In this document: positions 19,821 through 42,090 of the stretch, one piece after another | Position numbering within the stretch: position 1 is the stretch's first letter | Layout: each line of letters opens with the position of its first letter | Assembly (NCBI GenBank): GCA_964421635.1 | Contig: CAYQWZ010000001.1 | Span: forward strand, 71,267 to 135,266 | DNA length: 64,000 nucleotides | Reading direction: 5' to 3' | Source: an uncultured Candidatus Saccharibacteria bacterium | GTDB taxonomy: Bacteria > Patescibacteriota > UBA1384 > CAILIB01 > JAUSJZ01 | Program-made: the position numbers and the translations under genes | Notes under the pieces: model-generated | Seen by the model: the letters and a program-made list of their open reading frames with translations, nothing else | Database searches by the model: none | What the model was told of the DNA's origin: nothing

Positions 19821-22610
19821 TTAATTTACTGTAGGCTCAGTAGTAAGCTCAGTCTTTTCGTCTTTCTTTTTGAATCGATCTTGTTCACGAGCTATGGCAA
19901 TATCAAGCGGTTCACCAACAAACCATTTCAAACCGCCACGCTGTGAATGTTCTTTATAGGCGCGATTACCAATGACTTTTAATAGCTTGGGTTTGTATTC
20001 CTTTTTTTCTTTTGTAATTTCTTCTGCTGCCTCACTTCCCTGCTCCATATTAATAGGCTCAACAGAATTTTTAACTGTTGATTTAACTTCTTCTGGCGCT
20101 CTCTCCCCTACCACCTTATTTGGCTCTGCTGGTATATATTTCTTTTCATTCACCCGCTCTTGGGCTGAACGCAACACCTCCCCTACTTCACGAGACTTAA
20201 GTCTAGATTCCATTTTTTCTTTAATGCCACTCCACTTCTCAATTGTTGCCTCAACTTCATTTCTTGGCGTTGAGTACTTACGCCTTGATTTATCGTAAAT
20301 CTCCTCTCTGTGCTCATTATTCATTTCTGGAGGAGACAGCGTAAAGGCAGAGAAAGCCGGCGGGGATAACCCGTCAATAAGCAGTTTGATATAAATATGA
20401 TATTTCTCTAAATTAACCAAGTCTTCTTCTTCGAATGGCTTTAGCTCTTTCGTTAAGGCAGCTGCATCGGGCGCTCCTACTCTAAACGACACAATTGTAC
20501 CTACATTACCGAAAACAGCGTCTCTGACCTCTTCTGGCATCTGAGCGACATACTGGTGAGCAAGAGTCAGCCCTAAACTATACTTACGAGCCTCAGATAA
20601 AATAACAGAGAAAGATTCAGTGGCAAAATTCTGGAATTCATCAACATATAAGAAAGATTCCGGGCGCTCCTCACGAGTGACATCCGCACGACTCATAGCA
20701 GCTAGCTGCACTTTAGTAATCATCATGGCACCCATAAGGGCAGCGTTATCTTCACCAATTTTACCGCGCGAAAGATTTACAATAAATATCTTCTGTTTAT
20801 CCATCATGCCTCTAACATTAATAGAGCTTCGTTTCTGACCAACAATATTACGGATTGTTGGAGTAGATAAAAACTGACCAACTTTGTTTAAAATAGGGCT
20901 AACTGCTTCTGACTGGAACTTTTGATCCATGGCGCCAAATTCATTGACCCAGAAATCTTGAATGACCGGATCTTTAACATAATCTATAACTTTTTCTCTA
21001 AAAGCTTTTTCAGTTAACATTTTTGGAATTGAAAGCATTGTCGAATCAGGATAATCGAGCAAAGCCAAAACCGTATTGCGCAAGATATGCTCGAGTCGAG
21101 GGCCCCAAGAGTAGCCAAAGATCTTTTTAAAAATTCCTACAAAGCCCGAAGCCACCATGCCCTTAAAGTCATCATCTACTTGTTCAAGCAGATTGAAAGC
21201 AATTGGGAACTCTCTATCTGCTGGGTCAAAGACAACTACATCATCTATTCTCGATGGCGGCACAATAGCAATAGTTTCGTCTGCTAGCTCTCCATGAGGG
21301 TCAACTACAATAACTCCCCTGCCCTCATCAATGTCATCCTTAATCATATTGAGCATCAGCTTAGATTTACCCACACCAGATTTACCAATAATGTAGACAT
21401 GCTGCAGGCGGTCTAGCATTTTAATACCAAACTCTTTCTCATTATTTCTAAAGTCGGTTCGGCCAAGTAGCGTTATTTGATCATCATCATGTTCCCCTTT
21501 TATTGGTAGATTGACTGGAGCTTCACTTTTTTTACTACCTGCCCAAGTCAGATTGGGTGTCATTACACTTTGATTTGGAAAATGGTAAATTGACGCTAAT
21601 TCTTCTGTATTAAATATATTCCCCTTCTTCTCAAGGTTTCTATTCACATATTCAGACCATAGCTTGGCATCGTTAACCTTCACTTCCCCACTCTTAAATC
21701 CGTTCATATTCGTAGTATTAAACTGCTTGAAGGCTCCCAATAAGCTTTGCAGTCTAGTTTTGGCGTTAAGAGGATTATCAGAAATGGAAATTGCTCGAAT
21801 AATTACTTCATAGCCAAGCTTTGTTACTTTAGTCTCTATTCCGCTCATTGCCTCACTAACAGGGCCGGCCAACTCTTTCGGTCCATCGTCTCCCCCACCA
21901 CCCGATGAGCCAGGTGTGATAATCTCTTTAAATACATCTTGAGCTAATCTTGAGGCTGAATGCCCTACACCTGTCTTTTTTCCTATACTTCCTGACTTGA
22001 CAGCTTTAATATAGTTTAATCCTTTTTTTTGCCAGTCATCATTTACCGGCTTCATTACTAGCTGTAACCAAACCTGCTCTTGATTCGCCAGCTTCGACAG
22101 CACGGCTGTAATTGCTGCTAATGGGTCAACCTCGAAATTATTAAAGGTTCTAACTGGGTACACATCTTCTTTGTTCAAACCAATTTCAGTTAACGCAATG
22201 GTCATATTCTGCACATCGACAGATTTGGTATAGTCATCAACTTTTTCTATGCTGACATCAGGGTATTGAGCATAAATTTGGCCCTCTACGAAATCTTGTA
22301 GATGCACCGGTAAAAAGATATAAAACTGAATATAATTAACAGTGGATACAATTTCAAAGCTAATATGCTCCTGAATAATATTGTCGTCTCGCAGTATCCC
22401 ATGAATAGATGAGAAGAACTGTTCCGCTGACAGAGGGGTTTTCTCATTATTACGCGGCACATCAATTTTTAGAGTAATGAAGGTTAAGGATTCTAAGAAG
22501 TCTGACCGGCGAGCAAGTTTTTTAGATTTTAACCAGTAATTAAAAGCAATAAAAGGAGTTACCAATATAATGGCTACTATGATACCCGCTAAAATTGCTG
22601 CTGCACTCAT
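19821..22610 (-). CDS. Membrane-anchored VirD4/TraG- or VirB4-like (FtsK-HerA superfamily) P-loop ATPase, copy 2 (929 aa).
   Basis: N-terminal TM. Walker A 'GKSGVGKS'. 'VVDPHGEL' (DPKGE-like). C-terminal 'YVDEFQNF...ARKYSLGLTLAHQYVAQ...GNVGTIVSFRV' (TraG-D_C-like). ATGA overlap with copy 1. Confidence 0.55.
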   Translation of the reverse strand: MSAAAILAGIIVAIILVTPFIAFNYWLKSKKLARRSDFLESLTFITLKIDVPRNNEKTPLSAEQFFSSIHGILRDDNIIQEHISFEIVSTVNYIQFYIFLPVHLQDFVEGQIYAQYPDVSIEKVDDYTKSVDVQNMTIALTEIGLNKEDVYPVRTFNNFEVDPLAAITAVLSKLANQEQVWLQLVMKPVNDDWQKKGLNYIKAVKSGSIGKKTGVGHSASRLAQDVFKEIITPGSSGGGGDDGPKELAGPVSEAMSGIETKVTKLGYEVIIRAISISDNPLNAKTRLQSLLGAFKQFNTTNMNGFKSGEVKVNDAKLWSEYVNRNLEKKGNIFNTEELASIYHFPNQSVMTPNLTWAGSKKSEAPVNLPIKGEHDDDQITLLGRTDFRNNEKEFGIKMLDRLQHVYIIGKSGVGKSKLMLNMIKDDIDEGRGVIVVDPHGELADETIAIVPPSRIDDVVVFDPADREFPIAFNLLEQVDDDFKGMVASGFVGIFKKIFGYSWGPRLEHILRNTVLALLDYPDSTMLSIPKMLTEKAFREKVIDYVKDPVIQDFWVNEFGAMDQKFQSEAVSPILNKVGQFLSTPTIRNIVGQKRSSINVRGMMDKQKIFIVNLSRGKIGEDNAALMGAMMITKVQLAAMSRADVTREERPESFLYVDEFQNFATESFSVILSEARKYSLGLTLAHQYVAQMPEEVRDAVFGNVGTIVSFRVGAPDAAALTKELKPFEEEDLVNLEKYHIYIKLLIDGLSPPAFSAFTLSPPEMNNEHREEIYDKSRRKYSTPRNEVEATIEKWSGIKEKMESRLKSREVGEVLRSAQERVNEKKYIPAEPNKVVGERAPEEVKSTVKNSVEPINMEQGSEAAEEITKEKKEYKPKLLKVIGNRAYKEHSQRGGLKWFVGEPLDIAIAREQDRFKKKDEKTELTTEPTVN

Positions 22611-25111
22611 GACAATATTTGGTTCTCTTCTTTATTATCGTTAATTGGAATCTGGTCAATCCTACTTCTCTTTAATATCATTTCTGAGACAGCTTTACCA
22701 TCTTTTCCGAACTTTAGTCGCGAAAGCTCTTTAATTGCTGCTCCTAATTTCTCGCTGCCCCCTTCGTTCCAGTCGCTTGACTTGCCTGTAAAAGGATTAG
22801 TTGGTGCTCCATCAATTAAGGTTTTTAAGTAAAAATATCTTTTTTCAATGCTAGTCATATCGTTAATAGCAATACCATCAAACTCATTGGTTAGAAAATC
22901 TGCATCGGTAGCGCCAACTCTAAACACAACAGATGTTCCAACATTACCAATAACCGCATCTCTCAACTCTTCCGTTAACTGAGCAATATACTGGTTAGTA
23001 ATATTTAAACTCAATTTATACTTTCTAGCCTCAGATAAAATTGTGGCAAAAGTTTCAGTGGTAAAGTTTTGAAACTCATCAACATACAGATAAAACGGTA
23101 CTCTCTGACTCTCTGGAACTTCTTGGCGTGAAAATGCCGCCAGCTGTAATTTAGAAACAATGATCATTCCCAAAAGATGTGAGTTCACTTCCCCTACTAA
23201 TCCTTTAGACAAATTAACTAGAAGGATCTTTTTATTGTCCATTATCTCTCGAAAATCAAAGCTGCTCTGCGGCTGGCCAATAATATTGCGCATCATATCA
23301 TTAGTCATAAAACGACCGAACTTGGAAACGAAATAATTTAACATCTCACTTTTACTTTGAGCTGAGGTTTGAGCCATCTGCTTCTCCCAGAAGGCTTTAA
23401 CTACTGGGTCAGTCACATGCGCTACACTGGCTTTTTCAAACTCTTTATCAACAAATAGGCGTGGAATTTCAACCAAGGTTCCCCCTTCCGGATTACTCAT
23501 TAAAGTTAGTGCTGCATTTCTAAGCCAGTGCTCGAACTGTGGCCCGACAATTCCTGTCTGATTAGGGTCAAACAGTTTATAAAACATTGAGACTGCCTCT
23601 TGCACTAAAAAGTCTTTATCTTCCGGTTTTTTCCACTCTAGCAGGTTTAAGCCAAACGGTCTGCCTGTATCTGCCGGATTAAAATAGACAACATCTTCTG
23701 CTCGCTCTTTTGGAATGCGACTTAAAATCCATTCAATAGCATCACCGTTAGGGTCAATGTAACAAACGCCATGGCCGGCCTGAATATCTTGCTCAATCAT
23801 ATTTTCAAATAGAACCGTTTTACCAACACCCGTTTTACCAATCATAAACAGATGCCGCATTCTATCATCAGGTTGTATATAGATTGGCTTTGTCTCTCCG
23901 CGATATACTGACTCCCCTATCTTAATTCCTTCCTTTGGCATATTAGATGGCGGCGATAATTTTCGCGAACCAAGCCAGGCAATATTCGGAGTATCTACAT
24001 TGGCGTTCGGTAAATGATAAACAGAGGCAATCTCTTTAGTGTTCAAAATCATAGTTGGCGAACTGCCAAACCGGCGAAAAATATAATCCTTAATAATGAC
24101 ATCGGGTTTTCTTTTGTTAACTCGAAATCCGTTTCTGTCTGGCGAGTTGAATTGGCCAAAAGCAGATATTATATTATTCAAATGATTTTTGGCCTCAATC
24201 TCTGTATTCGAGCTAGTGACACATCTTATCTGAACATCTAGTGCTTGGTCAGACATCTTCTCTTTCAAAAGCTCAATTAACACCTGATTTTTTGGCGAGA
24301 CCGTTTTTTGCTCCGGCAACGCTTGTGACTTATTATCACTTCCTCTGACAATCTCTTTTCCAATATCTCCCAATAAATTACCAGCCGAGCTCTTCCAATC
24401 CTTCGCTTCTTCTATATCTTTTCCATCCATTAATTCAGCCAACGCCTTCTCAATATTTTCCTGCCATTTTGCCTGTCGTGGTCTAATTAAAACCTGAACG
24501 GCACCGTTCGTTTCGGTCCCTAATTTAGAAAGCGCGCTGGAAATTGGGTTAAGTGTATCGACTTCAATATCGGGATAAGTTTTAATCGGAATCATATACG
24601 AGCGATTCAACTCCAAGTAAGCGGCATCGTAAGGCTTGTCCTGACCATTAAATAGTTGAAAATCTTTTGCCTCCTCAATTTGCGCCGAAGGATAAATAGA
24701 ATGAATTTGTCGCTCAATTAAATCTTTATGCAAAGCCGGCGTTGCTATGTAGAAAAATATCTCACTATTCTTAGCTAAAATTTCTAAAGAGAATGTTGGC
24801 TGAACCGGCTTGTTGAACATTGAAGGATTTTCAAAGATTGTTGTCAAACTATCTAACAGTGGTTCGAATATTGAGATTAGGTCTTTGTAATCTTTCTTCT
24901 CTTCGTCGTTACTCCCCTGCTCTTTGGGCACTAAAATTTTTAGAAAAATCAAATTCTTCGCCGCCGCTGTTTGGCCGACAATCGATTTCGCTTTATTTTT
25001 TCGCGTCAACCACCAAAAAACCAAAAAAGCAGCCACCAAAAAAATTATTAGTAAAGCTACCCCACTCTGGTTTGATTGTGTCGCTGCACCTTCAAAAAAG
25101 GGGTCGTTCAT
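22607..25111 (-). CDS. Membrane-anchored VirD4/TraG- or VirB4-like P-loop ATPase, copy 1 (834 aa), a paralogue of 19821-22610.
   Basis: Walker A 'GKTGVGKT'. 'YIDPNGDA'. 'YVDEFQNFTTETF...ARKYKLSLNITNQYIAQ'. N-terminal TM helix. Confidence 0.55.
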   Translation of the reverse strand: MNDPFFEGAATQSNQSGVALLIIFLVAAFLVFWWLTRKNKAKSIVGQTAAAKNLIFLKILVPKEQGSNDEEKKDYKDLISIFEPLLDSLTTIFENPSMFNKPVQPTFSLEILAKNSEIFFYIATPALHKDLIERQIHSIYPSAQIEEAKDFQLFNGQDKPYDAAYLELNRSYMIPIKTYPDIEVDTLNPISSALSKLGTETNGAVQVLIRPRQAKWQENIEKALAELMDGKDIEEAKDWKSSAGNLLGDIGKEIVRGSDNKSQALPEQKTVSPKNQVLIELLKEKMSDQALDVQIRCVTSSNTEIEAKNHLNNIISAFGQFNSPDRNGFRVNKRKPDVIIKDYIFRRFGSSPTMILNTKEIASVYHLPNANVDTPNIAWLGSRKLSPPSNMPKEGIKIGESVYRGETKPIYIQPDDRMRHLFMIGKTGVGKTVLFENMIEQDIQAGHGVCYIDPNGDAIEWILSRIPKERAEDVVYFNPADTGRPFGLNLLEWKKPEDKDFLVQEAVSMFYKLFDPNQTGIVGPQFEHWLRNAALTLMSNPEGGTLVEIPRLFVDKEFEKASVAHVTDPVVKAFWEKQMAQTSAQSKSEMLNYFVSKFGRFMTNDMMRNIIGQPQSSFDFREIMDNKKILLVNLSKGLVGEVNSHLLGMIIVSKLQLAAFSRQEVPESQRVPFYLYVDEFQNFTTETFATILSEARKYKLSLNITNQYIAQLTEELRDAVIGNVGTSVVFRVGATDADFLTNEFDGIAINDMTSIEKRYFYLKTLIDGAPTNPFTGKSSDWNEGGSEKLGAAIKELSRLKFGKDGKAVSEMILKRSRIDQIPINDNKEENQILS

Positions 25112-25147
25112 ACTTCTTATTTTACCCCAAAATCTACCTATTAGGGC

Positions 25148-25441
25148 CTATATTTCAGGCCCAAAAAGATCATTCTCTAATACACTAGGCTGACTGTCGC
25201 TATTGATATCATTTGTAGTCTGTAAGTTTGGCTCAACTTTTGATGTTTCATTTGTCGCAGCCTCTGTTTGAGAATGCAGATTAACTTCCATTTTTTGCGG
25301 AATTAACTGTTTAGACTCAGATTCAACAGCCAGCTCTTTAACAGAAGGATTACTGTTTACTTTAACTGGCTGCTGTAATTTCTCTGGTTGTGGCGGTAGT
25401 TCTAACCCACCAATTTTATTTTCCACAATTTTATTTTCCAT
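25148..25441 (-). CDS. Small acidic, probably disordered protein leading the ATPase pair.
   Basis: 97 aa, E/Q/P/S-rich, no TM. The start lies 4 nt after the tgt stop. Confidence 0.3.
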   Translation of the reverse strand: MENKIVENKIGGLELPPQPEKLQQPVKVNSNPSVKELAVESESKQLIPQKMEVNLHSQTEAATNETSKVEPNLQTTNDINSDSQPSVLENDLFGPEI

Positions 25442-25445: not shown

Positions 25446-26630
25446 CTATTTTATACCAAATGTCTGACAAAACTTTTCATACTTATTATCTCGAATTGCA
25501 TTCTGCGAATGTTTAATAATATTTTGAATAAAAGTTAAGTTGTGTAAAGTAAATTCCTGCATAATACCAATCTCTTTCTCTTTATATAAATGATTAATAA
25601 AGGATTGCTTGATCTCTCTTCTCTCTTGAGCATTGTAGATCTCTTCGTTCTCGTCTGAGTTTTGATACTTTGCTTTAGGAAAAGTGTGTTTCTCAATTGT
25701 AATTTTTTTCGCTTCAGCCAGTTTCTTTGTGTCTAATTCCCAAAAAGCATCAATGTCTTCTTTTTTACCTTTGAGTTGCCAAATTACTCCATGTCTAGCC
25801 AATCTGGTTGGCAAAACACAATCGAACATATCTATTCCGCATTTTATAGCGTGCATAATATCTTCAGGCTCACCTACTCCCATTAAATATCTGGGTTTGT
25901 TGGTCGGCAATAAATTGGCAGTGTATTCAATTGTTTCATACAGCTTTTTCTTCGACTCCCCCACTGCCAGACCGCCAATTGCATTGCCATCTAAATTTAG
26001 ATTAGCTACAAATTCTGCCGATTGAGCTCTCAAAGTTTTATTTGTGCCTCCTTGCACAATACCAAACAAAGCCGGCTTTTTACTCTTAAGTGATCGCCAG
26101 TAAATAGCTGCTTCTGCCAACCAATTATGTGTTCGCTGTAAAGCTCGCTTAAGCTCATCTGAATTTGCCCCCGCCTCTGCACAATCATCAAGAGGCATAG
26201 CAATATCTACTCCCAATTTTGTTTGAATATCAATAACTTTTTTTGGAGTAAATCTGTGAGTTGAGCCATCATAGTGTGAAGTGAAAGTCACTCCTAGCTC
26301 ATCAATTTTAGCTAGCTTGCCACCTCTTTTTCGTCCTAAAGAAAACACTTGGTATCCTCCGCTATCAGTTAGGATTGGCCCAGAATAACCAATAAAATTA
26401 TGTAATCCTTGCGCATTCTCAATTACTTTCAGACCCGGCCGCAAATATAGATGATAAGTATTAGCCAGAAAGATTTGAGCACCCGTATTTTTTAGCTGAT
26501 CAAAATTAATAGTCTTGATGAATCCTTTAGTACCCACTGTCATAAAAGCGGGCGTAGTAAAATCTCCATGAGCGGTTTTGACCACACCTAAACGAGCACC
26601 TCCATCTTTCTTGCTTAGTTTAAATTCCAT
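25446..26630 (-). CDS. tgt: Queuine tRNA-ribosyltransferase (tRNA-guanine transglycosylase).
   Basis: 'FMTVGTKG', 'LTDSGGYQVFSL' and a C-terminal zinc-site region. Confidence 0.85.
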   Translation of the reverse strand: MEFKLSKKDGGARLGVVKTAHGDFTTPAFMTVGTKGFIKTINFDQLKNTGAQIFLANTYHLYLRPGLKVIENAQGLHNFIGYSGPILTDSGGYQVFSLGRKRGGKLAKIDELGVTFTSHYDGSTHRFTPKKVIDIQTKLGVDIAMPLDDCAEAGANSDELKRALQRTHNWLAEAAIYWRSLKSKKPALFGIVQGGTNKTLRAQSAEFVANLNLDGNAIGGLAVGESKKKLYETIEYTANLLPTNKPRYLMGVGEPEDIMHAIKCGIDMFDCVLPTRLARHGVIWQLKGKKEDIDAFWELDTKKLAEAKKITIEKHTFPKAKYQNSDENEEIYNAQERREIKQSFINHLYKEKEIGIMQEFTLHNLTFIQNIIKHSQNAIRDNKYEKFCQTFGIK

Positions 26631-27241
26631 TAGGGTAAATCTCTTAGCTCCTTAAATTTTTTGTTTTCAAAGACAAGTGTATTGGTGCTTAAATTGTCAA
26701 CCTTATTTTTTTGCTTAAAATCATGATATGAAATTCCTAAAGTTGAACATATTGCCACAATAATTGGATCCCCATGCGAGACAACTAAAACATGAGACAG
26801 ATTTTTAGCTAAAGTCTGTTTAATAAATTTCTGCATCCGGCTTTGCATTTGCACGAAGGATTCAAACTTCTGACCCTCAACTTCCACCGGCAATTGGTAA
26901 GGATCTTGATCGTAGATAGCTTTTAGCTTGGCGTACTTTCCACTATTCCAAACTCTGCGGCTCATACCTTGTGTGATATATACCCACTCAATTATTTCTT
27001 TTGTGTACTCAATTTCAATCTGTGGTAATGCTTCTTTTTTTACTATTTGTGCTGTTTGCTTCGTTCGTTCTAGTGGGCTTGAGATTATTAGTTGGTAAGG
27101 ATTATTCTTTAAATCATTGGCTTTCTTCTTCGTATTTTTAACACCAATCGCTGATAAAAAATATCCTTCGAGCGCTCCATAAATTATCTCTTTTTTATTT
27201 TCTACTTCTGCATGTCTTAAGAAAGTTATATATTGAGTCAT
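26630..27241 (-). CDS. Histidine phosphatase superfamily (phosphoglycerate mutase-like) protein.
   Basis: N-terminal 'ITFLRHAEV' RH motif and a later 'VVSHGDPI' His motif. Confidence 0.6.
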   Translation of the reverse strand: MTQYITFLRHAEVENKKEIIYGALEGYFLSAIGVKNTKKKANDLKNNPYQLIISSPLERTKQTAQIVKKEALPQIEIEYTKEIIEWVYITQGMSRRVWNSGKYAKLKAIYDQDPYQLPVEVEGQKFESFVQMQSRMQKFIKQTLAKNLSHVLVVSHGDPIIVAICSTLGISYHDFKQKNKVDNLSTNTLVFENKKFKELRDLP

Positions 27242-27262
27242 ACTATATTTGATTTATACAAC

Positions 27263-27294
27263 AAAACGCCCTCAAGTAGGGCGTTTTGTTTTTA
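27263..27294. terminator. Bidirectional rho-independent terminator between rplL and the downstream operon.
   Basis: aaaacgccct-caagt-agggcgtttt (10-bp stem), flanked by an A-run upstream and a T-run downstream. Confidence 0.7.
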
Positions 27295-27306: not shown

Positions 27307-27753
27307 TTATTTAAGCTCAACCTTGGCACCAGCCGCTTCTAGCTTTTTCTTGGCTTCTTCTGCGTCATCTTTTGCCATAGCCTTAGCTACAGTTTTAGGA
27401 GCAGCTTCAACTAAATCTTTTGCATCCTTCAAGCCTAGGTTTTGGTCAATTTCACGCACTGCTTTAATGACAGCTATCTTCTGTGAACCAGCGTCAGCTA
27501 GAACAACATCATACTCACTTTTTGCTTCCTCTTCTTCTGCGGCTTCACCTGCAGCAGAACCACCGGTCATCATTATAGGAGCAGCAGCTGAAACGCCAAA
27601 TTTATCTTCAAGCACCTTTACGAACTCGGAAAGTTCTACTGCACTCATCTCTTCAATTTTTTTTACTAAGTCAGCAAACTTTGGGTCTACTGCTTTTGTT
27701 TCTTCTTTTGACTCCTCTTTTGGAGCCTCTTTTGTATCTTTTTCTTCGGCCAT
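27307..27753 (-). CDS. rplL: 50S ribosomal protein L7/L12.
   Basis: Ala/Glu-rich hinge and a C-terminal '[29 protein letters not shown]...AKVELK'. Confidence 0.95.
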
Positions 27754-27757
27754 AATA

Positions 27758-28282
27758 CTAATTTATTTTTTTACTTTGTACTTGATTCAAAACATTAACT
27801 AATCCTGAAAGTGGACCACGAATTACATTTACCAAGCCAGTCAATGGTGAGGCGATGACAAAAACTGTTTGTGCAAGTAACTGTTCTTTTGAAGGCAGAG
27901 ACGCTAGCTGTAACACAATATCTTTTTCAACCACCTTACCTTCGTATATTCCACCGACAACTTCTAGAACTTCTAATCTCTTAGCAAATTCATTAATGTC
28001 TTTTGAAACCTGAGCTTCATCTGTAGCTGAGGATGCAATAGCTAAAGGTTGACTATAGAATTCATCTGGCAGTTCAAGTTTGTTTTTCTTTAGCGCTAAC
28101 TTTAGTAAGTTGTTTTTGACAATTACGAAATCTTCATTATTTTCAAAAAACTTCTGTCTAATGTTTTCTGATTCCTCTACTGGTAATCCTTTATATCCTA
28201 AAATAACCGTCATTTTAGAACCGTCAATGACTTCGTGGTACTTGTTTACTAACTTCTCTTTTTGTACTCTTGTTTTTGGCAT
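27758..28282 (-). CDS. rplJ: 50S ribosomal protein L10.
   Basis: Position upstream of rplL, size and the '[11 protein letters not shown]' L10 pattern. Confidence 0.85.
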
Positions 28283-28440
28283 TTAAAAAACTGACTTATT
28301 AAAGTCAGAGATATTTAGAGATTATGCACGATTTGCGCGCTGTTCGTCTCGGCAGGACTTATGCTTGCCTGCTGTCTCTGACTTACTGAATTAGATTACC
28401 AAATTAGCAGGATTGTGTCAAACAATAATAAAAAAACCGC
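28283..28440 (-). promoter_or_regulatory. Candidate structured 5' leader of the rplJ-rplL operon (L10-leader-like).
   Basis: Several hairpins lie upstream of rplJ, for example ctgactt-att-aagtcag and ggcagg..cctgcc. The placement matches the known L10(L12)4 autoregulatory leader. The structure was not verified. Confidence 0.3.
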
Positions 28441-28470
28441 CGGCTTCTTTCGAAGTCGACGGGGAGTTCG

Positions 28471-28740
28471 TCAGGCCCGGTTGGGTGGCTTTTGAAGCTT
28501 GTTGGCCAGCACTTGGATTCCGAGCCATGCAACAGCTGAGATACCCAAAACGATGAGCATTACTGTTGGTAGACCCACCACAATCAACACCACCCCAACT
28601 GCCAAAGTGACCCTGGCGTTGGTCCTCATGCACTCGGCCGTACGAGGCACGAAGCTCTCTAGTCGATTGCTGTTGTAGATGCCCAACAGACTGAAGACGC
28701 TCACTGCCAGCCCGAGCCACAGACACCAGTAGATTCCCAC
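28471..28740 (-). CDS. Small 2-3-TM membrane protein encoded in a GC-rich patch.
   Basis: 89 aa. GTG start preceded by 'agaaaggggg'. Local GC is about 55% against a background of about 37%. Confidence 0.35.
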   Translation of the reverse strand: MGIYWCLWLGLAVSVFSLLGIYNSNRLESFVPRTAECMRTNARVTLAVGVVLIVVGLPTVMLIVLGISAVAWLGIQVLANKLQKPPNRA

Positions 28741-29071
28741 TGTGTGCCCCCTTTCTGTCTTTTAATATAACAAAAATACCCCTCTGATGCACGGTTTTTT
28801 TGGTTTTATCTAGATAATCATATTGTAATGTACTGTCATCTATAATTTAATTGATCACTATTCCAACAAGAAAGGAGGTGATCAGGCTAGTTACGGCACA
28901 AAAGACCTGGGTACCGGTAACTCAACTTTCAACGCCTCTAGCGTTGGCAAGATGACCGGTTCCAGCTCCAGTCAGGCAGCTGCTGCAGGCCACGCTGCTC
29001 GAGACGACATGCAGTCGTCTGGCGATATGGGGGTCTCTCCCAGCCGGGGCAAGTCGTGATCCTCAACTCAT

Positions 29072-29102
29072 GTCGGGGAGCTTCTCCCCGACACTTTTTT
29101 CT
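29072..29102 (+). terminator. Strong rho-independent terminator.
   Basis: gtcggggag-ctt-ctccccgac (9-bp perfect stem) followed by acTTTTTTcT. Confidence 0.65.
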
Positions 29103-29117
29103 GCTAAGTTCAAGCTA

Positions 29118-29462
29118 ATGAAAAAACCGGTAAATATTAATGAGAAAACCTGGGCTTTCTTAAATAAAAAACTTGGTACGAAGGATATTCAAAAAACCTT
29201 AGATAATCCTGGAAAAGTTTTGTTTGAACTGGGTTTTTTAAACAATCCTCAATTAGTAGTTGGCACAGTAATAGAAATGCCAAATGAAATTGAATATATG
29301 ATTACTGATCAAGGAGCAAAACAGCTTGCTGAAAATAACAATAATATAGAACTTAGAACCGTTTATGACCCAAGGTTGGAAATGTATCCAAAGGATGAAG
29401 TAATAAAAGCTTTGGTAGAAGGATTAATTTTTGACCAAGTAGATTCTACTCAACCAGCTTGA
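29118..29462 (+). CDS. Hypothetical protein.
   Basis: ORF track 29070..29462. The ATG at 29118 is preferred because the ATG at 29070 lies inside the terminator hairpin. It converges on and overlaps the rplA 3' end. Confidence 0.4.
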   Translation: MKKPVNINEKTWAFLNKKLGTKDIQKTLDNPGKVLFELGFLNNPQLVVGTVIEMPNEIEYMITDQGAKQLAENNNNIELRTVYDPRLEMYPKDEVIKALVEGLIFDQVDSTQPA

Positions 29463-30189
29463 CCTTTATTCCAGGGCCCATGGTAGTAGACAGTGTGATG
29501 CTCTTTATTTTAGTAGAAACTAGCGCGTCAATAACTGCTTGGACATTAGCTACAATTTCTTCGGCATTTGAACTAGTTTGACCTACTACCATATGAATAT
29601 TCTTGCCGTCATCTGTTCTATATTCAACTTTGCCACTCTCTAACTCTTTGCGAACACCTGCAATATCTTCCGTGACAGTGCCGCTTTTAGGATTAGGCAT
29701 TAAGCCTTTTGGCCCAAGACTTCGAGCGAACTTAGCAATCTTTGGCATTTGAGCCGGAGTAGCTAGCAAGACATCAAAATTGACATTGCCTTTCTCAAGC
29801 TCAGCAATTGTTTTGTCATCAGCTTCAGCTACAACGCGTTTCTTGCCAGTTGGTTTTGGCAGCTGAACTGAGCCTCTAATTTCATTTGATAAATTTAAGT
29901 GTAGTTCAACAGAACTCTTGAACTTGGTAGTACTTGTTTTTAAAACCAACGCTGCAGCTTCTGCTAAAGGATACTTCACAGAAACATCGTTATCTTTGAC
30001 TAACTTTTGGTATTTCTTTGAACGAGGGTCTCTTGGCGGGTTAGCCACCTGCTTCTTTCCTTTGGTTTTTTTAGCCGCTTCGGCTTTAGCTTTAGTTCGT
30101 TTTTTTGGTCCAGCTTTTGGCCCAGCCTTCGGCACAGCAGTTTTTTTTGTTTCTTTTTTGATTTCTTTTTTTTCTTCTTTCTTAGCCAT
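29446..30189 (-). CDS. rplA: 50S ribosomal protein L1 with a roughly 55-aa Lys/Ala/Pro-rich (histone-H1-like) N-terminal extension.
   Basis: 'GPKGLMPNPKSGTVTEDIA' L1 signature. N-terminal 'KKEIKKETKKTAVPKAGPKAGPKKRTKAKAEAAKK'. Confidence 0.9.
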   Translation of the reverse strand: MAKKEEKKEIKKETKKTAVPKAGPKAGPKKRTKAKAEAAKKTKGKKQVANPPRDPRSKKYQKLVKDNDVSVKYPLAEAAALVLKTSTTKFKSSVELHLNLSNEIRGSVQLPKPTGKKRVVAEADDKTIAELEKGNVNFDVLLATPAQMPKIAKFARSLGPKGLMPNPKSGTVTEDIAGVRKELESGKVEYRTDDGKNIHMVVGQTSSNAEEIVANVQAVIDALVSTKIKSITLSTTMGPGIKVKLVE

Positions 30190-35957: not shown

Positions 35958-37220
35958 CTAGCGGCTGGTCGGGGTGAAACCCCAGACCGTTTCCCCATTG
36001 CTCGAAGCAACGGGGCGCAGCTGCGCGGTGCGTGTCCACGGCGATGTCGAGCGCGGTTGACCGTCACGGTCGATGCCGGTAGCGGCGTTAGCGCCCTGAC
36101 CGTTCCCTTGGTCAGCACTGCTGCCCTGCGCCGGTATGGGCACCGTGCTGTTGTCCGGGTTGGGCACCGATGCCGGCGGTGTGTTGACCGCTTCGTCGGG
36201 GCCCTCGCCTACCGTCGCCGGTCCACCGGGGTTAGCGGCGGGGGGTGCCGGCGTTGTGGGCTCCGGAGCATCCGGCTGTGGCAGGTCGCCGGCCGGTGGC
36301 GGTGGCTCGTCAGGGCACTGCTCATCCGGCTTCGGCTCGTCGGGCTCAGGCTCAGGCTTGGGCTCAGGCTGCTTCTCAGCCTTGCGGCTGGGAAAAAGCA
36401 CCACACCAGCGTTAACGCTGATGCGTGTCCGCTCCGTCACCTGTCGCGGCCCAGACTGGACCGTGCCCACATCGTCTCGTTCGACCATCGCGCTAAGCAC
36501 GATGCCCGTAGCGGCGTTGACATAGACATTGACCACCTGGACTTGGGCCTGTTCCTGTTCGATGGTGCAGGCTTCAGCCGGCGGTCCCGGAGGCCCTTGC
36601 GGACCCGGCTCTCCAGGCTTGCCACGATCACCTTGCAGACCAGGCTTACCAGGTTTTCCCGGCTCGCCTCGCTCACCTTGGATGCCAGGAATTCCAGGAC
36701 GTTCAGGAGGGCAAGGCTCGAAGACCTTGTCGCCGAACGCCATGTTGGCACACTCCCGAGGGATCACAAGGCTACCTTCGAGCTTGGCGTTCGATGGCCC
36801 CGGATAGAGCACATTGAGCACATACGCCCATGCCTTGTGCCGCAACTTGACCTGATCCTTGATGGACTTGCCATCGCCGAAGGTCATGTTGTCGAACACA
36901 TAGCCCGCCGGAAACTCCAGCAGGTAGACGCCGTGCTCTTCCGAGCCCGGTTCTACCAACCCGACTGCCATCCGCTCGGTGATATCACGCATGATAACCA
37001 ACCGAGCAGCGCGGTCGTTGACGTTGGCCAGATCCAAGACATGGCTGACATCGTTGTATCCGCGCTGTGAATCCAGATGAGCCCTCAGAGCTTCAAAGCT
37101 CTGAATGCCACCCGGAACACGCGGGTTTCGGTCAAGGCTGACCGGAATTGGCGCCGCCTCAAGCGGCGCTACCATGACCATCATGACGATGGCCAGTACG
37201 CTTACCTTCAACCGCTTCAT
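35958..37220 (-). CDS. Secreted collagen-like triple-helix-repeat protein, encoded in the GC-rich island.
   Basis: Signal peptide '[17 protein letters not shown]'. About 14 G-X-Y triplets ('[39 protein letters not shown]'). '[16 protein letters not shown]' linker. RBS aaaggagg. About 65% GC. Confidence 0.6.
36596..36725 (-). repeat. Collagen G-X-Y triplet repeat-coding tract.
   Basis: Periodic ggN-ccN-NNN codons on the minus strand. Confidence 0.6.
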
Positions 37221-37338
37221 GGCGGCCTCCTTTTGTTCAGTCGTTAGATTGTTCAGTATTCCTCAGTTTGTCCCACCGAAGTGTGGCAAACAGTTGGACA
37301 GGCGAACGGTTGTTACACCGCTCGCCCAGGTTAGCAGA

Positions 37339-38679
37339 TCACTCTGCCCCTTCTCCTCCCAAAGGCGGCGAAGGTAGCTGGGCACTGAAAGCGCCCAGCA
37401 GGTCTGACTCATCCGGATTGCCCCAGACGAGCGTCCGCGACTCCGTCCCCTGATGAACGGGGACAATGTCGCCGTTGAATCCGCCCTCGGCGTAGTGCCA
37501 CGCCAAACCACTACTGGCTAGCGTGTCACCCACCGCCTCCGAATGGGCCAGCACCGCGTACTTCATGTCGTCGTAACAGGCATTGATCACCTGTTGGTTG
37601 ATGACGAACATGACATCACACGTGTCAGCCCCGGTCCAGTAAAGGACCAACGGATGGACTGCCCTACCAGCCAGCCGCTCTTTGACAGCAGCGGGTAGCT
37701 CGATGGAGGCTTTGCCGTTCGCATCCGGCCTGACCAGCGCTAGGCTGGCTTGCCGAGATGCGAATCTCTGCAGGGGCTGGCAGATGGATTCGGTCGAAAC
37801 CTCCTCCACCTTGTCAGGGTCAACGAATAGCACCAGCGCCACCATGCGAGGTGAATGCTTGGCCTTTCTCCCCTCCGCATCGCGGAATTTGACTTCCACG
37901 AACGGAGCGTTCGACCATAGCTGCGATTGCGGTCGCTGAGCGTGGTAAAACGCTCCCATGCCGCCGTTTACCGGATCAGCTTTGCTCCAGCCGACCATGC
38001 GGTAGAACCGCACGATCTCTCGCAGCGTTTCCGCCGGCACGGGTGTATCAGCCAAGACCGAAGCCAAGGCATCACCACCATCGGCAGGCTGCCACCCCTG
38101 CCAGTTGGTGAATTCAACCTCCACCGTCTGGGATATCCAGAGGTTGGAGTGTCGAACATTGTGGAAAAAGAGTAAAAAGGTGTCCGTCATGCGGACTCCC
38201 TTCTCTATCTCCACCACCAGCTGGAACCGCATGACCTGGCGAAACTCACCAGGGTTGCTGGCCCGATACAGGAGCTGGATTCGTACCAGATCTTCGTACC
38301 GAAGCCAAACCACCTGGTTGACAGCGTCGAAGACGCCGTACGCCTCCTCACTGCCAGCCAACTGGAACCAGGCTCGTTTGACAGCCTTGCCTTCGGTGGC
38401 AAGGTTGAGGTGCGCTTCAAGCTCACCTCCCCAGCCGAACACCGACCTCAACGAAGCCAGTGACACCGCCACCCACTCACGACCCATTCCGGGCGCTTCG
38501 CGGCGAGCGGTGTACGCGAGGTACGGAATCCCCATCTGGGGATTGACTCGTTCCTCCCGCTGTTCGAGCAAAGGCGCCGAAGCGTTAACGCCGACAGCGG
38601 GCTCAACACTCTGCGCCGGGATGGCGCAGGCCAGGACGGCGATCATAGCCGCCGCCATCGCTAGACGCAGATTACGCAT
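37339..38679 (-). CDS. Secreted hypothetical protein (446 aa), encoded in the GC-rich island.
   Basis: Signal peptide 'LAMAAAMIAVLACAIPAQS'. RBS aaggagaagga. About 62% GC. No recognisable family. Confidence 0.45.
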   Translation of the reverse strand: MRNLRLAMAAAMIAVLACAIPAQSVEPAVGVNASAPLLEQREERVNPQMGIPYLAYTARREAPGMGREWVAVSLASLRSVFGWGGELEAHLNLATEGKAVKRAWFQLAGSEEAYGVFDAVNQVVWLRYEDLVRIQLLYRASNPGEFRQVMRFQLVVEIEKGVRMTDTFLLFFHNVRHSNLWISQTVEVEFTNWQGWQPADGGDALASVLADTPVPAETLREIVRFYRMVGWSKADPVNGGMGAFYHAQRPQSQLWSNAPFVEVKFRDAEGRKAKHSPRMVALVLFVDPDKVEEVSTESICQPLQRFASRQASLALVRPDANGKASIELPAAVKERLAGRAVHPLVLYWTGADTCDVMFVINQQVINACYDDMKYAVLAHSEAVGDTLASSGLAWHYAEGGFNGDIVPVHQGTESRTLVWGNPDESDLLGAFSAQLPSPPLGGEGAE

Positions 38680-38839: not shown

Positions 38840-41623
38840 TTAGAAACCACTATTAGCCCCAACTTGCGCTTCAGCCAAGTTTTGGGCCTCAGCTTCCGCT
38901 TCTTCTATCTTTTCCGGAGTAATGTGAACGCCTGAATACCTGTGGTCAAAACCGTCCTCGGGAACATTCATTTCAAACGGTTCCTCAACAGGCTCTACAC
39001 CTGTTGGAACAGCCGCTTGAGCAGCCTCTGAACTCTCTGACATAATGTCAGGCTCCACCACACCGCCAGCCACCTGAGCTTCATCTGTTGTTAACGAAGT
39101 GTTCCCCGCAGTCATTTCTGGCTCATCAAGCTCATTGCCTCCAATAGTGACATCGCTGTCTTCGCTATACAGCGCATGCTCAGTAACAGACAAATCTGAA
39201 TCAACAGACTCGGGTATATCAACCTCATTAATAGAAGGATTATCAACTTCAGGAATTTCTCCATCTGCGACAGTTGTGTCACTATCAAATAAATTTGTTT
39301 CAACACTAGCCGCACTATCACTATCTAAATCAATTGATTCACTGCCCTCACCAACAACATTTCCAGCTGTTTCATGGGCATCCACAACAGCCGAATTCTC
39401 TGAATTTTTAATTCCAAACAATTCATTTATAAATCCGTCATTTTGGGTTGGAGGTGCATCTGCAGCATCAGGCACGGCTGGTGGCTCAACAGCATCAGAC
39501 ACAGTAGAATCTTCTGCGGCTTCACGAGCAACGGCTTCAGCAGCATCACGAGCTTCATTAGCAGCACTTTTAATAGCCCGTACAATTTCGGCTCTTTGCT
39601 CAAATGCATTTCTCACACTAATTCCGTGACCAGTACAATTTTCATTTAAGAATAATTGCACTTTTGCATTCAAAGTCTGAGATAGTTCACTGACTACCTG
39701 AACCTGACCAGAATCGTCAACACTCCAGCTATCAGCCAGATGAGTTCCAGCATTTTTTACACTCTCTACAAAACTAGTTCTTAAAGTATCTAATGCTCCG
39801 CTCATATCTGATCCTTCTGGTAAATCTACATCTGACAAACCAGCTTTTGCCAAAACTTCACCGACACGATATTCAACGAATCCTCCTCCTCCAAAAACTT
39901 TCTCAATAGCTGAGTTCATAGCAGTTTGAGTAACATTATCAGCGTTAAAAATTATAGTTCCTGATCCTTCGTGGATAGTACCGATATTCGAACCAAACCC
40001 ATTCACATGAGCGGCTAAATTGTGTATATCAATATCACCGGCATTATTAATAATGTCAGCATCTACTACTCCATGTTCATGAAGGATTGCCTCTGCTAGA
40101 TGAGCACGCAATGAGTGGGCAGCATAATCAACATCTTCCAAAGATGTGTCTGAACCAGTCAACTCTCTGAATTCAGAATTCAGTTGCTCAAGCTGGTGAA
40201 CTAATCCAGCATCGTGACCTTTTAATTGCAACTGTGCAATAATTTCTCTTGATCGCTCAATACAGCTATTAACGCTGTTAACATTTTCCGCTGCAACTTC
40301 AATATCTAGTTGCTCAAACACTGTTTGGTGAATATTCTCAGGCGTACCTAATGTAGACGCTGATTGCTCATATAATTCGTGAACATGCTGGCGAACTTTT
40401 TCAACTTGAGCTGCAGTATAACCCATCGCAGGTACCGGTGCAGCAGGCGCATCTGTTACTGTATCATGATCAGCTCTTAGAGCTGCTAGATACCCACCAC
40501 CAATTGCAGCACCTAAAACTCCAATTCCAATAGAAATCCATGTCTTTGTACTTCGTCTTCGTCTGGCAAAATTGATTTCACTTTGCATAGCAACTATAGC
40601 GTCCTCCTCAGACAATCCACTATCAATTAACACCCTAAACAAAAGTCTCTGATAAGTTTTTTCATCTTGCTCCGACATTGACTGACCTCGCCTCTGCAAT
40701 CTAGTAGAGTAAAGGTGGGCATCAGCTAGTTTTCGTCTTGCTTCCCCAACACTCATATTTGGTAAATTTTCACCTTGCGTTTCATCATCTGCACCTTCTT
40801 CAACACTTTCTGTATTACCAAATATATCCTCACTAGACAATAAGAACTCTTCTTCTCTTAACTGACGAGCTTTTACTAATCTAGCAAAAGGATGCCAAAC
40901 CGAAACATCATTACCTTTACCTGAACCTAAATTTCTGATTAAAGCCCCAAATCTTTGTAAGCCGTTTCCCTTATAAGCCCAACTTCTAGCAGTTATCTTT
41001 TCTACAGTAGTTTTAGCCGACAGAAAACCAAAAAGTCCTCCAACAAATCCTCCCGCACCGCCAAGCATAGCGGCTCTTTTAATTTCCCTTCTGGTAATAA
41101 AACTAACTGCCGCTCCTGTTACCCCACCAATAATGGTATGAGTAGCTCCAAAAAGACCTAAGCTAAGAATTTTTTTAATTCCGAAATTAGTTCTGTGTAT
41201 AATATCCTCGACTCTTTCTAATAAGTTTGGATCAGTAATTTCCTTTACAGCATCAATAGCAATATCTTCTAAAATTGTCGCCATTACTTCTGCTTGTTCA
41301 GCGTCTATTTCTATATCTGTGACATCTTCACAGTTAGCAATTATTTCTCTTACTTGAACCAACTGCTCTGTTTCATCATAAGAAAATTCACCCATTCCAG
41401 TAACTCTTTCAATGGTTAATTGAAATTGCCCCTCAGCAACAGGTTCTATAGAATCTTCAATAGTTGGTACTGTAAGCGCAGACGCAACTACTGGCTCATC
41501 CTGCACAATATAATCTCCGGATTCATCAAAACCAGCTACAAAATTAGCACCAGGAATTAATAGCTCACCAGTTGGGCCAACTATTGGCTCACCGCCACCA
41601 AATTCAGGACTTTGAGATGTCAT
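38840..41623 (-). CDS. Large (927 aa) acidic protein with central glycine-zipper/TM segments and a long disordered D/E-rich C-terminus.
   Basis: 'LGLFGATHTIIGGVTGAAV', 'AAMLGGAGGFVGGLFGFLSA' and 'ISIGIGVLGAAIGGGYLAAL'. No N-terminal signal peptide. Translationally coupled to the upstream 90-aa ORF. Confidence 0.45.
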   Translation of the reverse strand: MTSQSPEFGGGEPIVGPTGELLIPGANFVAGFDESGDYIVQDEPVVASALTVPTIEDSIEPVAEGQFQLTIERVTGMGEFSYDETEQLVQVREIIANCEDVTDIEIDAEQAEVMATILEDIAIDAVKEITDPNLLERVEDIIHRTNFGIKKILSLGLFGATHTIIGGVTGAAVSFITRREIKRAAMLGGAGGFVGGLFGFLSAKTTVEKITARSWAYKGNGLQRFGALIRNLGSGKGNDVSVWHPFARLVKARQLREEEFLLSSEDIFGNTESVEEGADDETQGENLPNMSVGEARRKLADAHLYSTRLQRRGQSMSEQDEKTYQRLLFRVLIDSGLSEEDAIVAMQSEINFARRRRSTKTWISIGIGVLGAAIGGGYLAALRADHDTVTDAPAAPVPAMGYTAAQVEKVRQHVHELYEQSASTLGTPENIHQTVFEQLDIEVAAENVNSVNSCIERSREIIAQLQLKGHDAGLVHQLEQLNSEFRELTGSDTSLEDVDYAAHSLRAHLAEAILHEHGVVDADIINNAGDIDIHNLAAHVNGFGSNIGTIHEGSGTIIFNADNVTQTAMNSAIEKVFGGGGFVEYRVGEVLAKAGLSDVDLPEGSDMSGALDTLRTSFVESVKNAGTHLADSWSVDDSGQVQVVSELSQTLNAKVQLFLNENCTGHGISVRNAFEQRAEIVRAIKSAANEARDAAEAVAREAAEDSTVSDAVEPPAVPDAADAPPTQNDGFINELFGIKNSENSAVVDAHETAGNVVGEGSESIDLDSDSAASVETNLFDSDTTVADGEIPEVDNPSINEVDIPESVDSDLSVTEHALYSEDSDVTIGGNELDEPEMTAGNTSLTTDEAQVAGGVVEPDIMSESSEAAQAAVPTGVEPVEEPFEMNVPEDGFDHRYSGVHITPEKIEEAEAEAQNLAEAQVGANSGF

Positions 41624-41625
41624 AA

Positions 41626-41898
41626 TTAAGCTATAGCTTTATTTAATTTTTCTTGAGCTTCGCGCAAAACTTCCAATTCTACATCTTTATAAACGGCAAT
41701 AATGTCAATCTCCCACTTATTTTCGAAATCAATTAAAGATTCAGAATCAAACTTGTTCTCCAACACATTCAGAAAATCAGCCAAAGCGTCTTGGCCAAAA
41801 TTATTCTGAATATATACAAAAACACGAGCTTCTACCGCTCGCTCAAATGCACCCCTAATTTTTTTATCTTCAATTTTCATAATAATATTTTCGATCAA
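41626..41898 (-). CDS. Small acidic cytoplasmic protein (90 aa), a possible chaperone or partner of the 927-aa protein.
   Basis: Its stop lies 2 nt before the start of the next gene. No TM. Confidence 0.35.
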   Translation of the reverse strand: MIENIIMKIEDKKIRGAFERAVEARVFVYIQNNFGQDALADFLNVLENKFDSESLIDFENKWEIDIIAVYKDVELEVLREAQEKLNKAIA

Positions 41899-42057: not shown

Positions 42058-42090
42058 AAAATAAAGGGGTTTTGTCAACCCCAAAGCGAA
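42058..42090 (-). terminator. Rho-independent terminator after the Doc-family gene.
   Basis: Minus-strand ggggtt-gacaa-aacccc followed by TTTATTTTG. Confidence 0.5.

Follow-up and report, generated by a model that had tools for sequence, protein, structure and literature searches.

The stretch of DNA analyzed here, referred to as the window, comprises 64,000 nucleotides of contig CAYQWZ010000001.1 from an uncultured Candidatus Saccharibacteria bacterium. On its minus strand lie two overlapping genes, A and B, that encode large membrane-anchored ATPases. Sequence and structure comparisons make it near certain that both are coupling proteins (T4CPs) of type IV secretion systems (T4SSs), belonging to the hexameric ATPases of the VirD4/TrwB class in the variant form of monoderm conjugation operons. 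The two genes and their parts, with domain assignments from AlphaFold2 (AF2) models and profile alignments, were placed as follows.

22607..25111, minus strand: gene A, 834 aa, DUF8128 plus T4CP ATPase, A-type
25007..25063, minus strand: N-terminal transmembrane helix of A, residues 17-35 (Kyte-Doolittle 2.75; four K/R right after)
23927..24964, minus strand: DUF8128 of A, residues 50-395, cytoplasmic, predicted fold like that of the VirB4 N-terminal domain (AF2 and Foldseek)
22772..23926, minus strand: T4CP motor of A, residues 396-780 (hhalign with TrwB over A 413-747)
23816..23839, minus strand: Walker A of A, GKTGVGKT
23237-23626, minus strand: all-alpha domain inside the motor of A, residues 496-625 (helices in the AF2 model)
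23063..23086, minus strand: Walker B block of A, YVDEFQNF
22607..22610, minus strand: ATGA overlap of the A stop with the B start (direct sequence reading)
19821..22610, minus strand: gene B, 929 aa, paralogue of B-type with a K/E-rich C-terminal tail (residues ~766-929)
22542..22598, minus strand: N-terminal transmembrane helix of B, residues 5-23 (hydrophobicity and K/R flank)
21456..22493, minus strand: DUF8128 of B, residues ~40-385 (alignment with A; precomputed Pfam)
21363..21386, minus strand: Walker A of B, GKSGVGKS
20625..20648, minus strand: Walker B block of B, YVDEFQNF

The open reading frames (ORFs), the ATGA overlap and an acidic 97-aa ORF upstream of A were found exactly where an earlier reading of the letters (the sequence-only reading) had put them, and the junction of the two genes reads '...TTG TCA TGA' / 'ATG AGT GCA'. 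More than 1,500 significant homologues were returned for each query, with 50–100% identity among the matches listed, and A and B are therefore real genes and not chance ORFs. Their description as paralogues with one N-terminal transmembrane helix each was borne out, as the proteins are 35% identical over 770 aa (E 6e-149) and each carries a single strong N-terminal hydrophobic helix followed by 4–5 K/R, a positive-inside flank. A hydrophobic helix at this position was observed in 102 of 114 family members. Because the K/R cluster trails the helix, an N-out/C-in topology is expected for both proteins, which in turn places the remainder, including the ATPase, in the cytoplasm. The DPNGD/DPHGE, ARKY, GNVGT and FRVGA motifs were likewise verified at their coordinates, so that all motifs quoted in assigning the pair to the FtsK/HerA superfamily with T4SS coupling-protein hallmarks were confirmed. 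Alignment of 34 sequences of the two types showed no variation in Walker A, Walker B (D678/E679 in A), R696 or Q707, and both paralogues therefore look catalytically competent.

Coupling-protein identity was evaluated by means of profile searches. Above the Pfam gathering cut-offs A matched TrwB_AAD_bind (PF10412, 31.2 bits), T4SS-DNA_transf (PF02534, 31.0 bits) and TraG-D_C (PF12696, 26.8 bits), and B matched DUF87 (PF01935, 30.8 bits) and TrwB_AAD_bind (23.1 bits). The best curated families (Pfam, NCBIfam) were hence those of T4CPs, as the sequence-only reading had expected; mad8 and phrog_5156 scored higher and carry no T4SS label. The PADLOC mad8 match (E 7e-17) and weak HerA matches covered the motor alone. 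Alignment of the family profile with TrwB of R388, whose sequences were taken from NC_028464, gave hhalign 95% (E 2e-8) over the motor and the all-alpha domain including the DPNGD motif, and the helical block at residues 496–625 of A falls inside a continuous alignment to TrwB 118–410. A PDB profile search with the family found DotL and TrwB but not VirB4. In fact, the VirB4 ATPase families AAA_10, P-loop_TraG and CagE_TrbE_VirB gave no Pfam match in A or B, TIGR00929 (VirB4) reached 14 bits against a cut-off of 643, and hhalign of the family with TrwK gave 3.7% only, while a 94% hhalign match to an alignment of monoderm VirB4 proteins reflected the shared superfamily core only. The NCBIfam equivalogs (TraD, CD1115, TrbC, CedD) peaked at 36–65 bits against cut-offs of 250–800. 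Neither the FtsK_SpoIIIE motor nor the 4TM N-domain or the gamma domain was found in A or B, and FtsK_SpoIIIE appeared below cut-off in some relatives only.

An AF2 model of full-length A (predicted local distance difference test, pLDDT, 82; predicted template modelling score, pTM, 0.70) was compared with the PDB. The best match was full-length VirB4 (TrwK of R388; E 1e-15, about 920 aligned columns), and TrwB matched the motor half only, with a TM-score of 0.62 on the TrwB soluble domain. The all-alpha domain, which in known T4CPs recognises substrates or partners, showed an identity of 0.58 within A and 0.77 within B, but 0.33 between A and B, compared to 0.53 between the paralogues for the C-terminal motor region. 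Within each paralogue its conservation equals that of the motor. Since identity is low between the paralogues and high within them, the all-alpha domain has specialised differently in A and B.

The N-terminal domains, called uncharacterised in the sequence-only reading, turned out to be DUF8128 (PF26449), which precomputed Pfam assigns to A, B and their listed homologues. The domain has a predicted fold like that of the VirB4 N-terminal domain and is common to genes in T4CP position on monoderm conjugative plasmids and to some phages. It starts around residue 35–80 in listed matches with an intact N-terminus, and its profile finds 3,553 cluster representatives at 50% identity. No mention of DUF8128 was found in the literature searched. 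When the AF2 model of the N-domain of A alone (pLDDT 85.6, pTM 0.83) was searched against the PDB with Foldseek, the top 13 matches were all TrwK/VirB4 chains (E 1.5e-6 to 5e-4, TMq 0.43–0.51), followed by unrelated ferredoxin-like proteins. A scan of 16 N-domains at E<=10 linked no Pfam family to them, and hhalign comparisons of DUF8128 with TrwK, with a VirB4 from Bacillus and with an alignment of three monoderm VirB4 proteins were negative. Judged from the predicted fold, homology of DUF8128 to the VirB4 N-terminal domain is plausible.

Relatives of the pair outside of the candidate phyla radiation (CPR) were found on plasmids and in phages. The PHROGs family phrog_5156 matched both proteins over their full length (B, E 8e-99; A, E 2e-86), and full-length homologues including the N-domain were recovered by tblastn at 21–31% identity. 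These homologues occur on 317 plasmid and 50 phage records, the former from Streptomyces (93), Bacillus (74) and Staphylococcus (28) in addition to haloarchaeal and Sulfolobus plasmids, the latter including Bacillus phage G (gp156), SPO1-like and CP-51-like phages and the thermophilic phage D6E. On the 27.5-kb B. subtilis plasmid NZ_CP154917 the homologue WP_345805471.1 heads a typical Gram-positive conjugation operon; the genes after it encode a Replic_Relax relaxase, conjugal-transfer proteins, VirB4 as a separate protein (AAA_10, E 8e-116), a large transfer protein without a Pfam match that is possibly VirB6-like, and a cell-wall hydrolase. The linear Embleya (Actinomycetota) plasmid NZ_CP108778 has the order PrgI, VirB4, homologue (WP_331738717.1), relaxase and NlpC/P60. 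On both plasmids the homologue is in the T4CP position. The CPR profile aligned with the B. subtilis plasmid protein at hhalign 100% (E 1e-45, 647 columns) over residues 95–784 of A and thus over most of DUF8128, and tblastn against plasmid genes in T4CP position gave E values of up to 2e-71.

In phage G the VirB4-like gp155 lies beside gp156. The sole CPR VirB4 seen near A (locus L074, 11480–13892) matched the Embleya VirB4 (E 5e-113) and phage G gp155 (E 2e-61), and the matching VirB4 is directly beside the DUF8128 homologue both in the Embleya plasmid (L090, 7915–13911) and in phage G (L092, 2294–6436). These similarities are consistent with, and suggest, a common donor type of element for the CPR VirB4 and the A/B ATPases. 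The closeness of the L074 and Embleya VirB4 proteins fits the published derivation of CPR T4SSs from monoderm conjugation machinery (PMC12102498). Phage genes with DUF8128 and a T4CP motor were seen to be mis-annotated, for instance as 'MsbA-like' or 'lipid A export ATP-binding/permease' (L092, 3959–6436; L094, 3776–6496; records H1–H25).

Within the CPR, 80 loci came from a scan of species-representative genomes; their titles include Berkel-, Sacchari-, Doudna-, Woese-, Davies-, Curtiss-, Levy-, Roizman-, Shapiro-, Magasanik- and Staskawicz-bacteria, and A was present in every class sampled. Neighbour-joining trees were built with plasmid and phage homologues as root and 50 bootstraps, a simple method whose rooting is provisional. 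An A clade taking in all single-copy loci of every class was recovered in 43 of the 50 bootstraps and a monophyletic B clade in all 50; the grouping of CPR A with B was weak (31/50). The trees suggest one acquisition followed by an old duplication into A and B. Conservation of the pair, which the sequence-only reading had put forward as a check, was seen in part: both lineages are widespread, but B is found within 10 kb of A in Berkelbacteria-like loci only. There B is joined to A by the overlap or separated from it by a 175-aa gene, with or without a gene for a Sigma70_r4 and HARE-HTH protein. In the sampled part of Table S3 of PMC12102498, several Paceibacteria have near-adjacent t4cp2 pairs and Microgenomatia have one T4CP hit.

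Apart from the small upstream ORF, no conserved functional neighbour of A was found phylum-wide. Its neighbours are housekeeping genes that depend on lineage (tgt/SecDF, Xer/FtsB-like, GyrBA, DnaX). The tgt cluster (c13) was observed in 10 loci and lies directly upstream of A or its small ORF in Berkelbacteria-like loci only, and 18 loci have an Xer-type recombinase near A, frequently accompanied by a DivIC/FtsB-like gene (both recognised by eye). In several lineages a further cluster without a family match (c14, 175–290 aa) is placed either between the two ATPase genes or immediately downstream of A (L006, 9460–9987; L008–L010, L012, L015, L017, L027 and L036). A DnaX-like gene is downstream of A in L012, L017, L036 and L083, directly after c14 only in L017. 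Homologues of c14 and of another cluster, c73, were absent from the window, and a homology test of c14, c73 and the small upstream ORFs as remote Replic_Relax relaxases was negative. The Sigma70_r4 and HARE-HTH gene (~346 aa), which has no homologue in the window, is directly upstream of B in L008 (13117–14157), L009, L010 and in Saccharibacteria. Several contigs that are typical of the CPR bear the titles 'uncultured Gammaproteobacteria', 'Methylomirabilota', 'Bathyarchaeia archaeon', 'Limisphaerales' and 'Pristimantibacillus' (L012, L013, L016, L022, L055, L065, L070, L073 and others) and look like mislabelled or contaminated bins of metagenome-assembled genomes (MAGs).

Published transposon sequencing (Tn-seq) of Southlakia epibionticum allowed the two lineages to be compared in a living epibiont. 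SEML1_0142 is a 1,019-aa 'TraM recognition domain-containing' protein with a P-loop at 381–800 (PMC10633639, Tables S1/S2); it was scored ES/ES/ES, its insertions falling from 114 in the input to ~10, and the 139-aa SEML1_0141 just upstream received zero insertions, for which polarity on SEML1_0142 is possible (PMC10633639). SEML1_0293 has 921 aa with PF10412 at 402–719 and was scored NE/NE/NE, and the gene preceding it, SEML1_0294, annotated 'RpoS' and encoding Sigma70_r4 and HARE-HTH, is essential (PMC10633639). The motor of SEML1_0293 was located at residues 361–795. The genes SEML1_0138–0146 follow the order YifB (minus strand), small, small, ATPase, 193 aa (minus), 535 aa (minus), GyrB and GyrA, and the same order with matching gene lengths is found around the A-type gene with DUF8128 in the loci of Saccharibacteria that were examined. 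From this nine-gene synteny, together with DUF8128, we infer that SEML1_0142 is the orthologue of A; SEML1_0293 is probably that of B because its HARE-HTH linkage matches L008–L010.

Both genes are flagged 'core' and 'Patescibacteria-enriched' (PMC10633639). They are ~140 kb apart and both are unlinked from the T4SS cluster SEML1_0006–0019, which is mostly ES/ES/ES (SEML1_0012 is NE) and is described as having no recognisable coupling protein (PMC10633639). The same genome encodes a canonical essential FtsK, SEML1_0096, with 4TM, alpha and gamma domains (PMC10633639). A non-essential T4CP homologue of S. epibionticum is cited in PMC12102498 and is evidently SEML1_0293. The essential A-type paralogue SEML1_0142 is discussed neither in PMC10633639 nor in PMC12102498.

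In the window, A and B end a tight string of genes whose other members, and the hairpin preceding it, are listed below.

25148..25441, minus strand: small acidic low-complexity ORF, 97 aa, 36 nt upstream of A, C-terminal '..SVLENDLFGPEI'
25446-26630, minus strand: tgt, context gene upstream in the string (Pfam TGT, E 4e-119)
26630-27241, minus strand: histidine phosphatase, context gene upstream in the string (Pfam His_Phos_1, E 4e-28)
27260-27290: palindromic hairpin with a perfect 13-bp stem and T-runs, between rplL and the histidine-phosphatase gene

The gene order is His_Phos, tgt, 97-aa ORF, A and B, with overlaps or gaps of <=36 nt, a spacing that supports a single transcription unit and with it the earlier claim of an operon shared with tgt and the histidine phosphatase. 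The hairpin is likely a terminator or attenuator heading this string; a promoter scan was uninformative (28 sites vs 23.7 expected). The window matches an ENA metagenome contig, and among named organisms its nearest relatives are Berkelbacteria/Patescibacteria. The remaining genes of the window are housekeeping genes, namely ftsA/Z, RNR, UvrD, RmuC, SecDF, ribosomal proteins, RF1, recR, topA, dprA, mfd, ftsW and pseudopilins with a prepilin peptidase. No VirB4, PrgI/VirB3, VirB6 or relaxase gene was recognised across the window, in agreement with the orphan status previously given to the pair, and no conjugative element was present. Proximity to dprA, recR and pseudopilins had been offered as support for a role in DNA uptake; this did not hold up, as they are not conserved neighbours of A and B. 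The GC content is at genome level, the flanking genes are all core housekeeping genes that are syntenic in relatives, and no integrase, relaxase, further MADS gene or HerA partner adjoins the pair. Scans of the whole window for tRNA genes and for Rfam families at gathering score found neither.

The product of the 97-aa ORF is of low complexity, with 16 D+E against 8 K+R, and had no family match in profile searches. In 69 of 84 loci A is preceded within 300 bp by a co-directional ORF. These ORFs mostly encode 60–200 aa, a few being ordinary larger genes such as tgt, and are conserved within lineages, usually with a disordered acidic or P/Q-rich N-terminal part and a helical C-terminal part. Between the window and a genome with a 79% identical A, the 97-aa protein and its counterpart reach only 27% identity, and they have a C-terminal '..(V/L)LE..LFG' motif in common. 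A single family of small upstream ORFs across classes found no support, as only three Microgenomatia clusters are related to one another (83%) and other pairs reach <=1%. The 97-aa protein would thus be a fast-evolving, lineage-specific partner of A, as an adaptor or a substrate.

Several further features of the window were recorded away from the pair. A high-GC island at 35958–38679 (GC 0.62 vs ~0.38 for the genome) carries two ORFs, 420 and 446 aa long, whose N-termini resemble signal peptides, the 446-aa product having no Pfam match on record. Contig k141_439172 from the same ENA sample ends inside the island and k141_78828 may do so depending on its orientation; the island looks like a horizontally acquired insert that breaks assemblies. 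Between it and cysS/recR/topA/dprA lies the region 38840–42711, in which a 90-aa ORF and a Fic-domain gene (42100–42711) precede a 927-aa ORF (38840–41623) of no Pfam family in a stretch of ~0.49 GC. An insert of ~1.1 kb is found between rplA and rplJ (28275–29462), where the relative L001 has 123 bp. It contains a full-length, sub-threshold match to the L10 leader (28275–28399, minus strand; 28.7 bits vs a gathering score of 44), GC-rich segments (0.48–0.59) with an 89-aa ORF of three hydrophobic helices (28471–28740, minus strand), and a 130-aa ORF (29070–29462) on the strand opposite to the latter. A 701-nt stretch of the insert folds better than shuffled sequences (z -3.45 for the minus and -2.5 for the plus strand). 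The nusG-rplK-rplA-rplJ-rplL cluster is itself split (27307–30189 and 49804–50894), with the nusG- and rplK-like genes, assigned by eye, ~20 kb from rplA-rplJ-rplL; pth, ybaB, prfA, CLIPPER-domain proteins, the high-GC island, Fic, cysS, recR, topA, dprA and mfd lie between the halves.

The reading to which we give most weight, at roughly an even chance of being right, is that A and B are substrate-feeding motors of a CPR T4SS that is encoded elsewhere in the genome, the genes having been relocated from the T4SS locus. Each protein would form a membrane-anchored, ATP-driven ring that receives a macromolecular substrate and hands it to the Patescibacteria T4SS. DUF8128 could serve as a docking or oligomerising module on the VirB3/VirB4/TrsD inner-membrane platform, with cargo selection falling to the all-alpha domain. 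In this scheme A, being essential in S. epibionticum, would be the constitutive motor and B an accessory motor for other cargo, its all-alpha domain specialised differently. The coupling to the T4SS and the kind of cargo are what we infer here; it counts in favour of this reading that SEML1_0142, the orthologue of A, shares its essentiality with most genes of the T4SS cluster.

A number of observations weigh against it. A trait of T4CPs, being encoded with a T4SS and/or relaxase, was not seen in the window and almost never in related loci, where VirB4 is within 10 kb of A in just 1 of 84. Likewise, 5,713 T4CP hits were counted in 2,918 of 3,035 CPR genomes with 148 of them near virB4, VirB4 itself occurs in only 2,417 CPR genomes compared to 2,918 for T4CP (a difference confounded by MAG incompleteness), and relaxases are nearly absent from the CPR (PMC12102498). 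Some CPR genomes may thus keep the ATPases without a T4SS. The B orthologue of S. epibionticum is dispensable while the T4SS is essential. A is 40–55% identical across CPR classes, where VirB6, VirB8 and pilins are barely recognisable, a conservation more in keeping with a universal cargo or partner than with effectors peculiar to each lineage. Finally, the likeness of DUF8128 to the VirB4 N-terminal domain is one of fold only, with no sequence-profile backing.

Much of this would be accounted for if A and B were exapted as a T4SS-independent translocase, i.e. a detached coupling protein driving another essential membrane process, such as the movement of DNA, nucleoprotein or unfolded protein via the ComEC/type IV pilus uptake route or another pore. 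The genes are unlinked from the T4SS and more widespread than VirB4, the motor and all-alpha domain are very highly conserved across classes, well above the structural parts of the T4SS, the neighbours are lineage-dependent housekeeping genes, and the authors of PMC12102498 left this open. No alternative channel or partner is conserved beside the genes, however, a genuine essential FtsK (SEML1_0096) exists and the essentiality of A parallels that of the T4SS. Furthermore, S. epibionticum remains viable when comEC is deleted but requires A, and the essential role of A is therefore not ComEC-dependent uptake. We regard exaptation as possible but doubtful. A more specific version, in which A and its small upstream partner form an essential Patescibacteria-specific translocation motor independent of the T4SS and B is a motor for different cargo, is offered as an unlikely speculation. 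If true, A could import or hand over host-derived macromolecules needed by biosynthetically crippled cells, and DUF8128 would mark a lineage of the VirB4/VirD4 superfamily, with a VirB4-like N-domain on a coupling-protein motor, as an evolutionary intermediate.

The sequence-only reading had instead proposed that the pair works alone as a minimal translocon, which would make A and B an obligate hetero-oligomer. Co-expression is implied by the ATGA overlap in the window, both proteins retain their catalytic residues, and PDB entry titles describe solved structures of VirB4, whose N-terminal domain resembles the predicted fold of DUF8128, as dimers and a trimer of dimers. The comparison with relatives argues against this proposal: B is close to A in Berkelbacteria-like loci only, many lineages show A only, with one T4CP hit for Microgenomatia in the sampled Table S3 (PMC12102498), and in S. 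epibionticum the two genes are ~140 kb apart with A essential and B dispensable. A pore built from one transmembrane helix per subunit is in itself unlikely, and we judge an obligate pair improbable. Chances are poorer still for an FtsK-like pump for chromosome segregation or dimer resolution. A and B are membrane-anchored motors of the FtsK/HerA superfamily and an Xer-type recombinase is near A in 18 loci, but they have no gamma domain, and the canonical essential FtsK of S. epibionticum rules out A or B as an FtsK replacement. Least credible is a remnant of a mobile element or prophage or a part of an anti-phage system (a conjugative element, a phrog_5156-type gene or a HerA/MADS ATPase). 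The mad8 match (E 7e-17), weak HerA matches, the full-length match to phrog_5156 and the 317 plasmid and 50 phage records point that way, against which stand syntenic core housekeeping flanks, GC at genome level, the 'core' and 'Patescibacteria-enriched' flags of both families in S. epibionticum and the absence of an adjoining relaxase, integrase, MADS gene or HerA partner. A defence system or mobile element was rejected because of this gene context.

The family had been counted among orphan T4CP homologues in 2025 (PMC12102498). In the literature searched, we found no report of the split into A and B clades, of the VirB4-like fold of the N-domain, or of full-length kinship to monoderm plasmid T4CPs and Bacillus phage genes, nor any link to the paralogue that is essential in S. 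epibionticum and had been overlooked. A large part of bacterial diversity belongs to the Patescibacteria, which are obligate epibionts, and coupling proteins are the substrate receptors of T4SSs. In the sole genetically tractable Patescibacteria species the T4SS is essential and its cluster is reported without a coupling protein. Should A be the missing receptor, it would provide a direct handle on what is injected into the hosts or extracted from them; should it work without a T4SS, it would be an essential phylum-specific motor. The joining of DUF8128, as a VirB4-like N-domain, to a VirD4-like motor is an architecture also present in large Bacillus phages and in plasmids of monoderms, haloarchaea and Sulfolobus, and is in turn relevant to the divergence of the VirB4 and VirD4 ATPase families.

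Compared with known systems, A and B share the ATPase superfamily of FtsK/SpoIIIE, HerA and mad8 but have neither the 4TM and gamma domains of FtsK nor HerA partners or MADS genes. The phrog_5156 phage genes are alike over their full length, but at 21–25% identity. Monoderm plasmid proteins in T4CP position are of similar size (812–885 aa) at an identity to A and B of only 23–29%; unlike A and B, their genes adjoin a Replic_Relax relaxase and VirB4, and the Bacillus plasmid protein (WP_345805471.1) has no N-terminal transmembrane helix. The orthologues in S. epibionticum are unlinked, with A essential and B not, whereas the pair in the window overlaps. VirB4 (TrwK) resembles A and B in its length of ~800 aa, its two-part architecture and an N-domain that the predicted DUF8128 fold matches, but the motor sequence of A and B is unlike the VirB4 families, and CPR genomes encode their own separate VirB4 apart from A and B. 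Relative to TrwB and VirD4, A and B differ by an extra 350-aa DUF8128 between anchor and motor, by the lack of relaxase or T4SS neighbours and by duplication into two phylum-wide paralogues. Canonical T4CPs usually have two transmembrane helices, compared to one in A and B, which are a variant form in this respect. With TrwB and VirD4/TraD/TraG they have in common membrane anchoring, a P-loop motor with an inserted all-alpha domain, and the GxxGxGK[ST], DPNGD, hhhhDE Walker B and RK..L...Q motifs.

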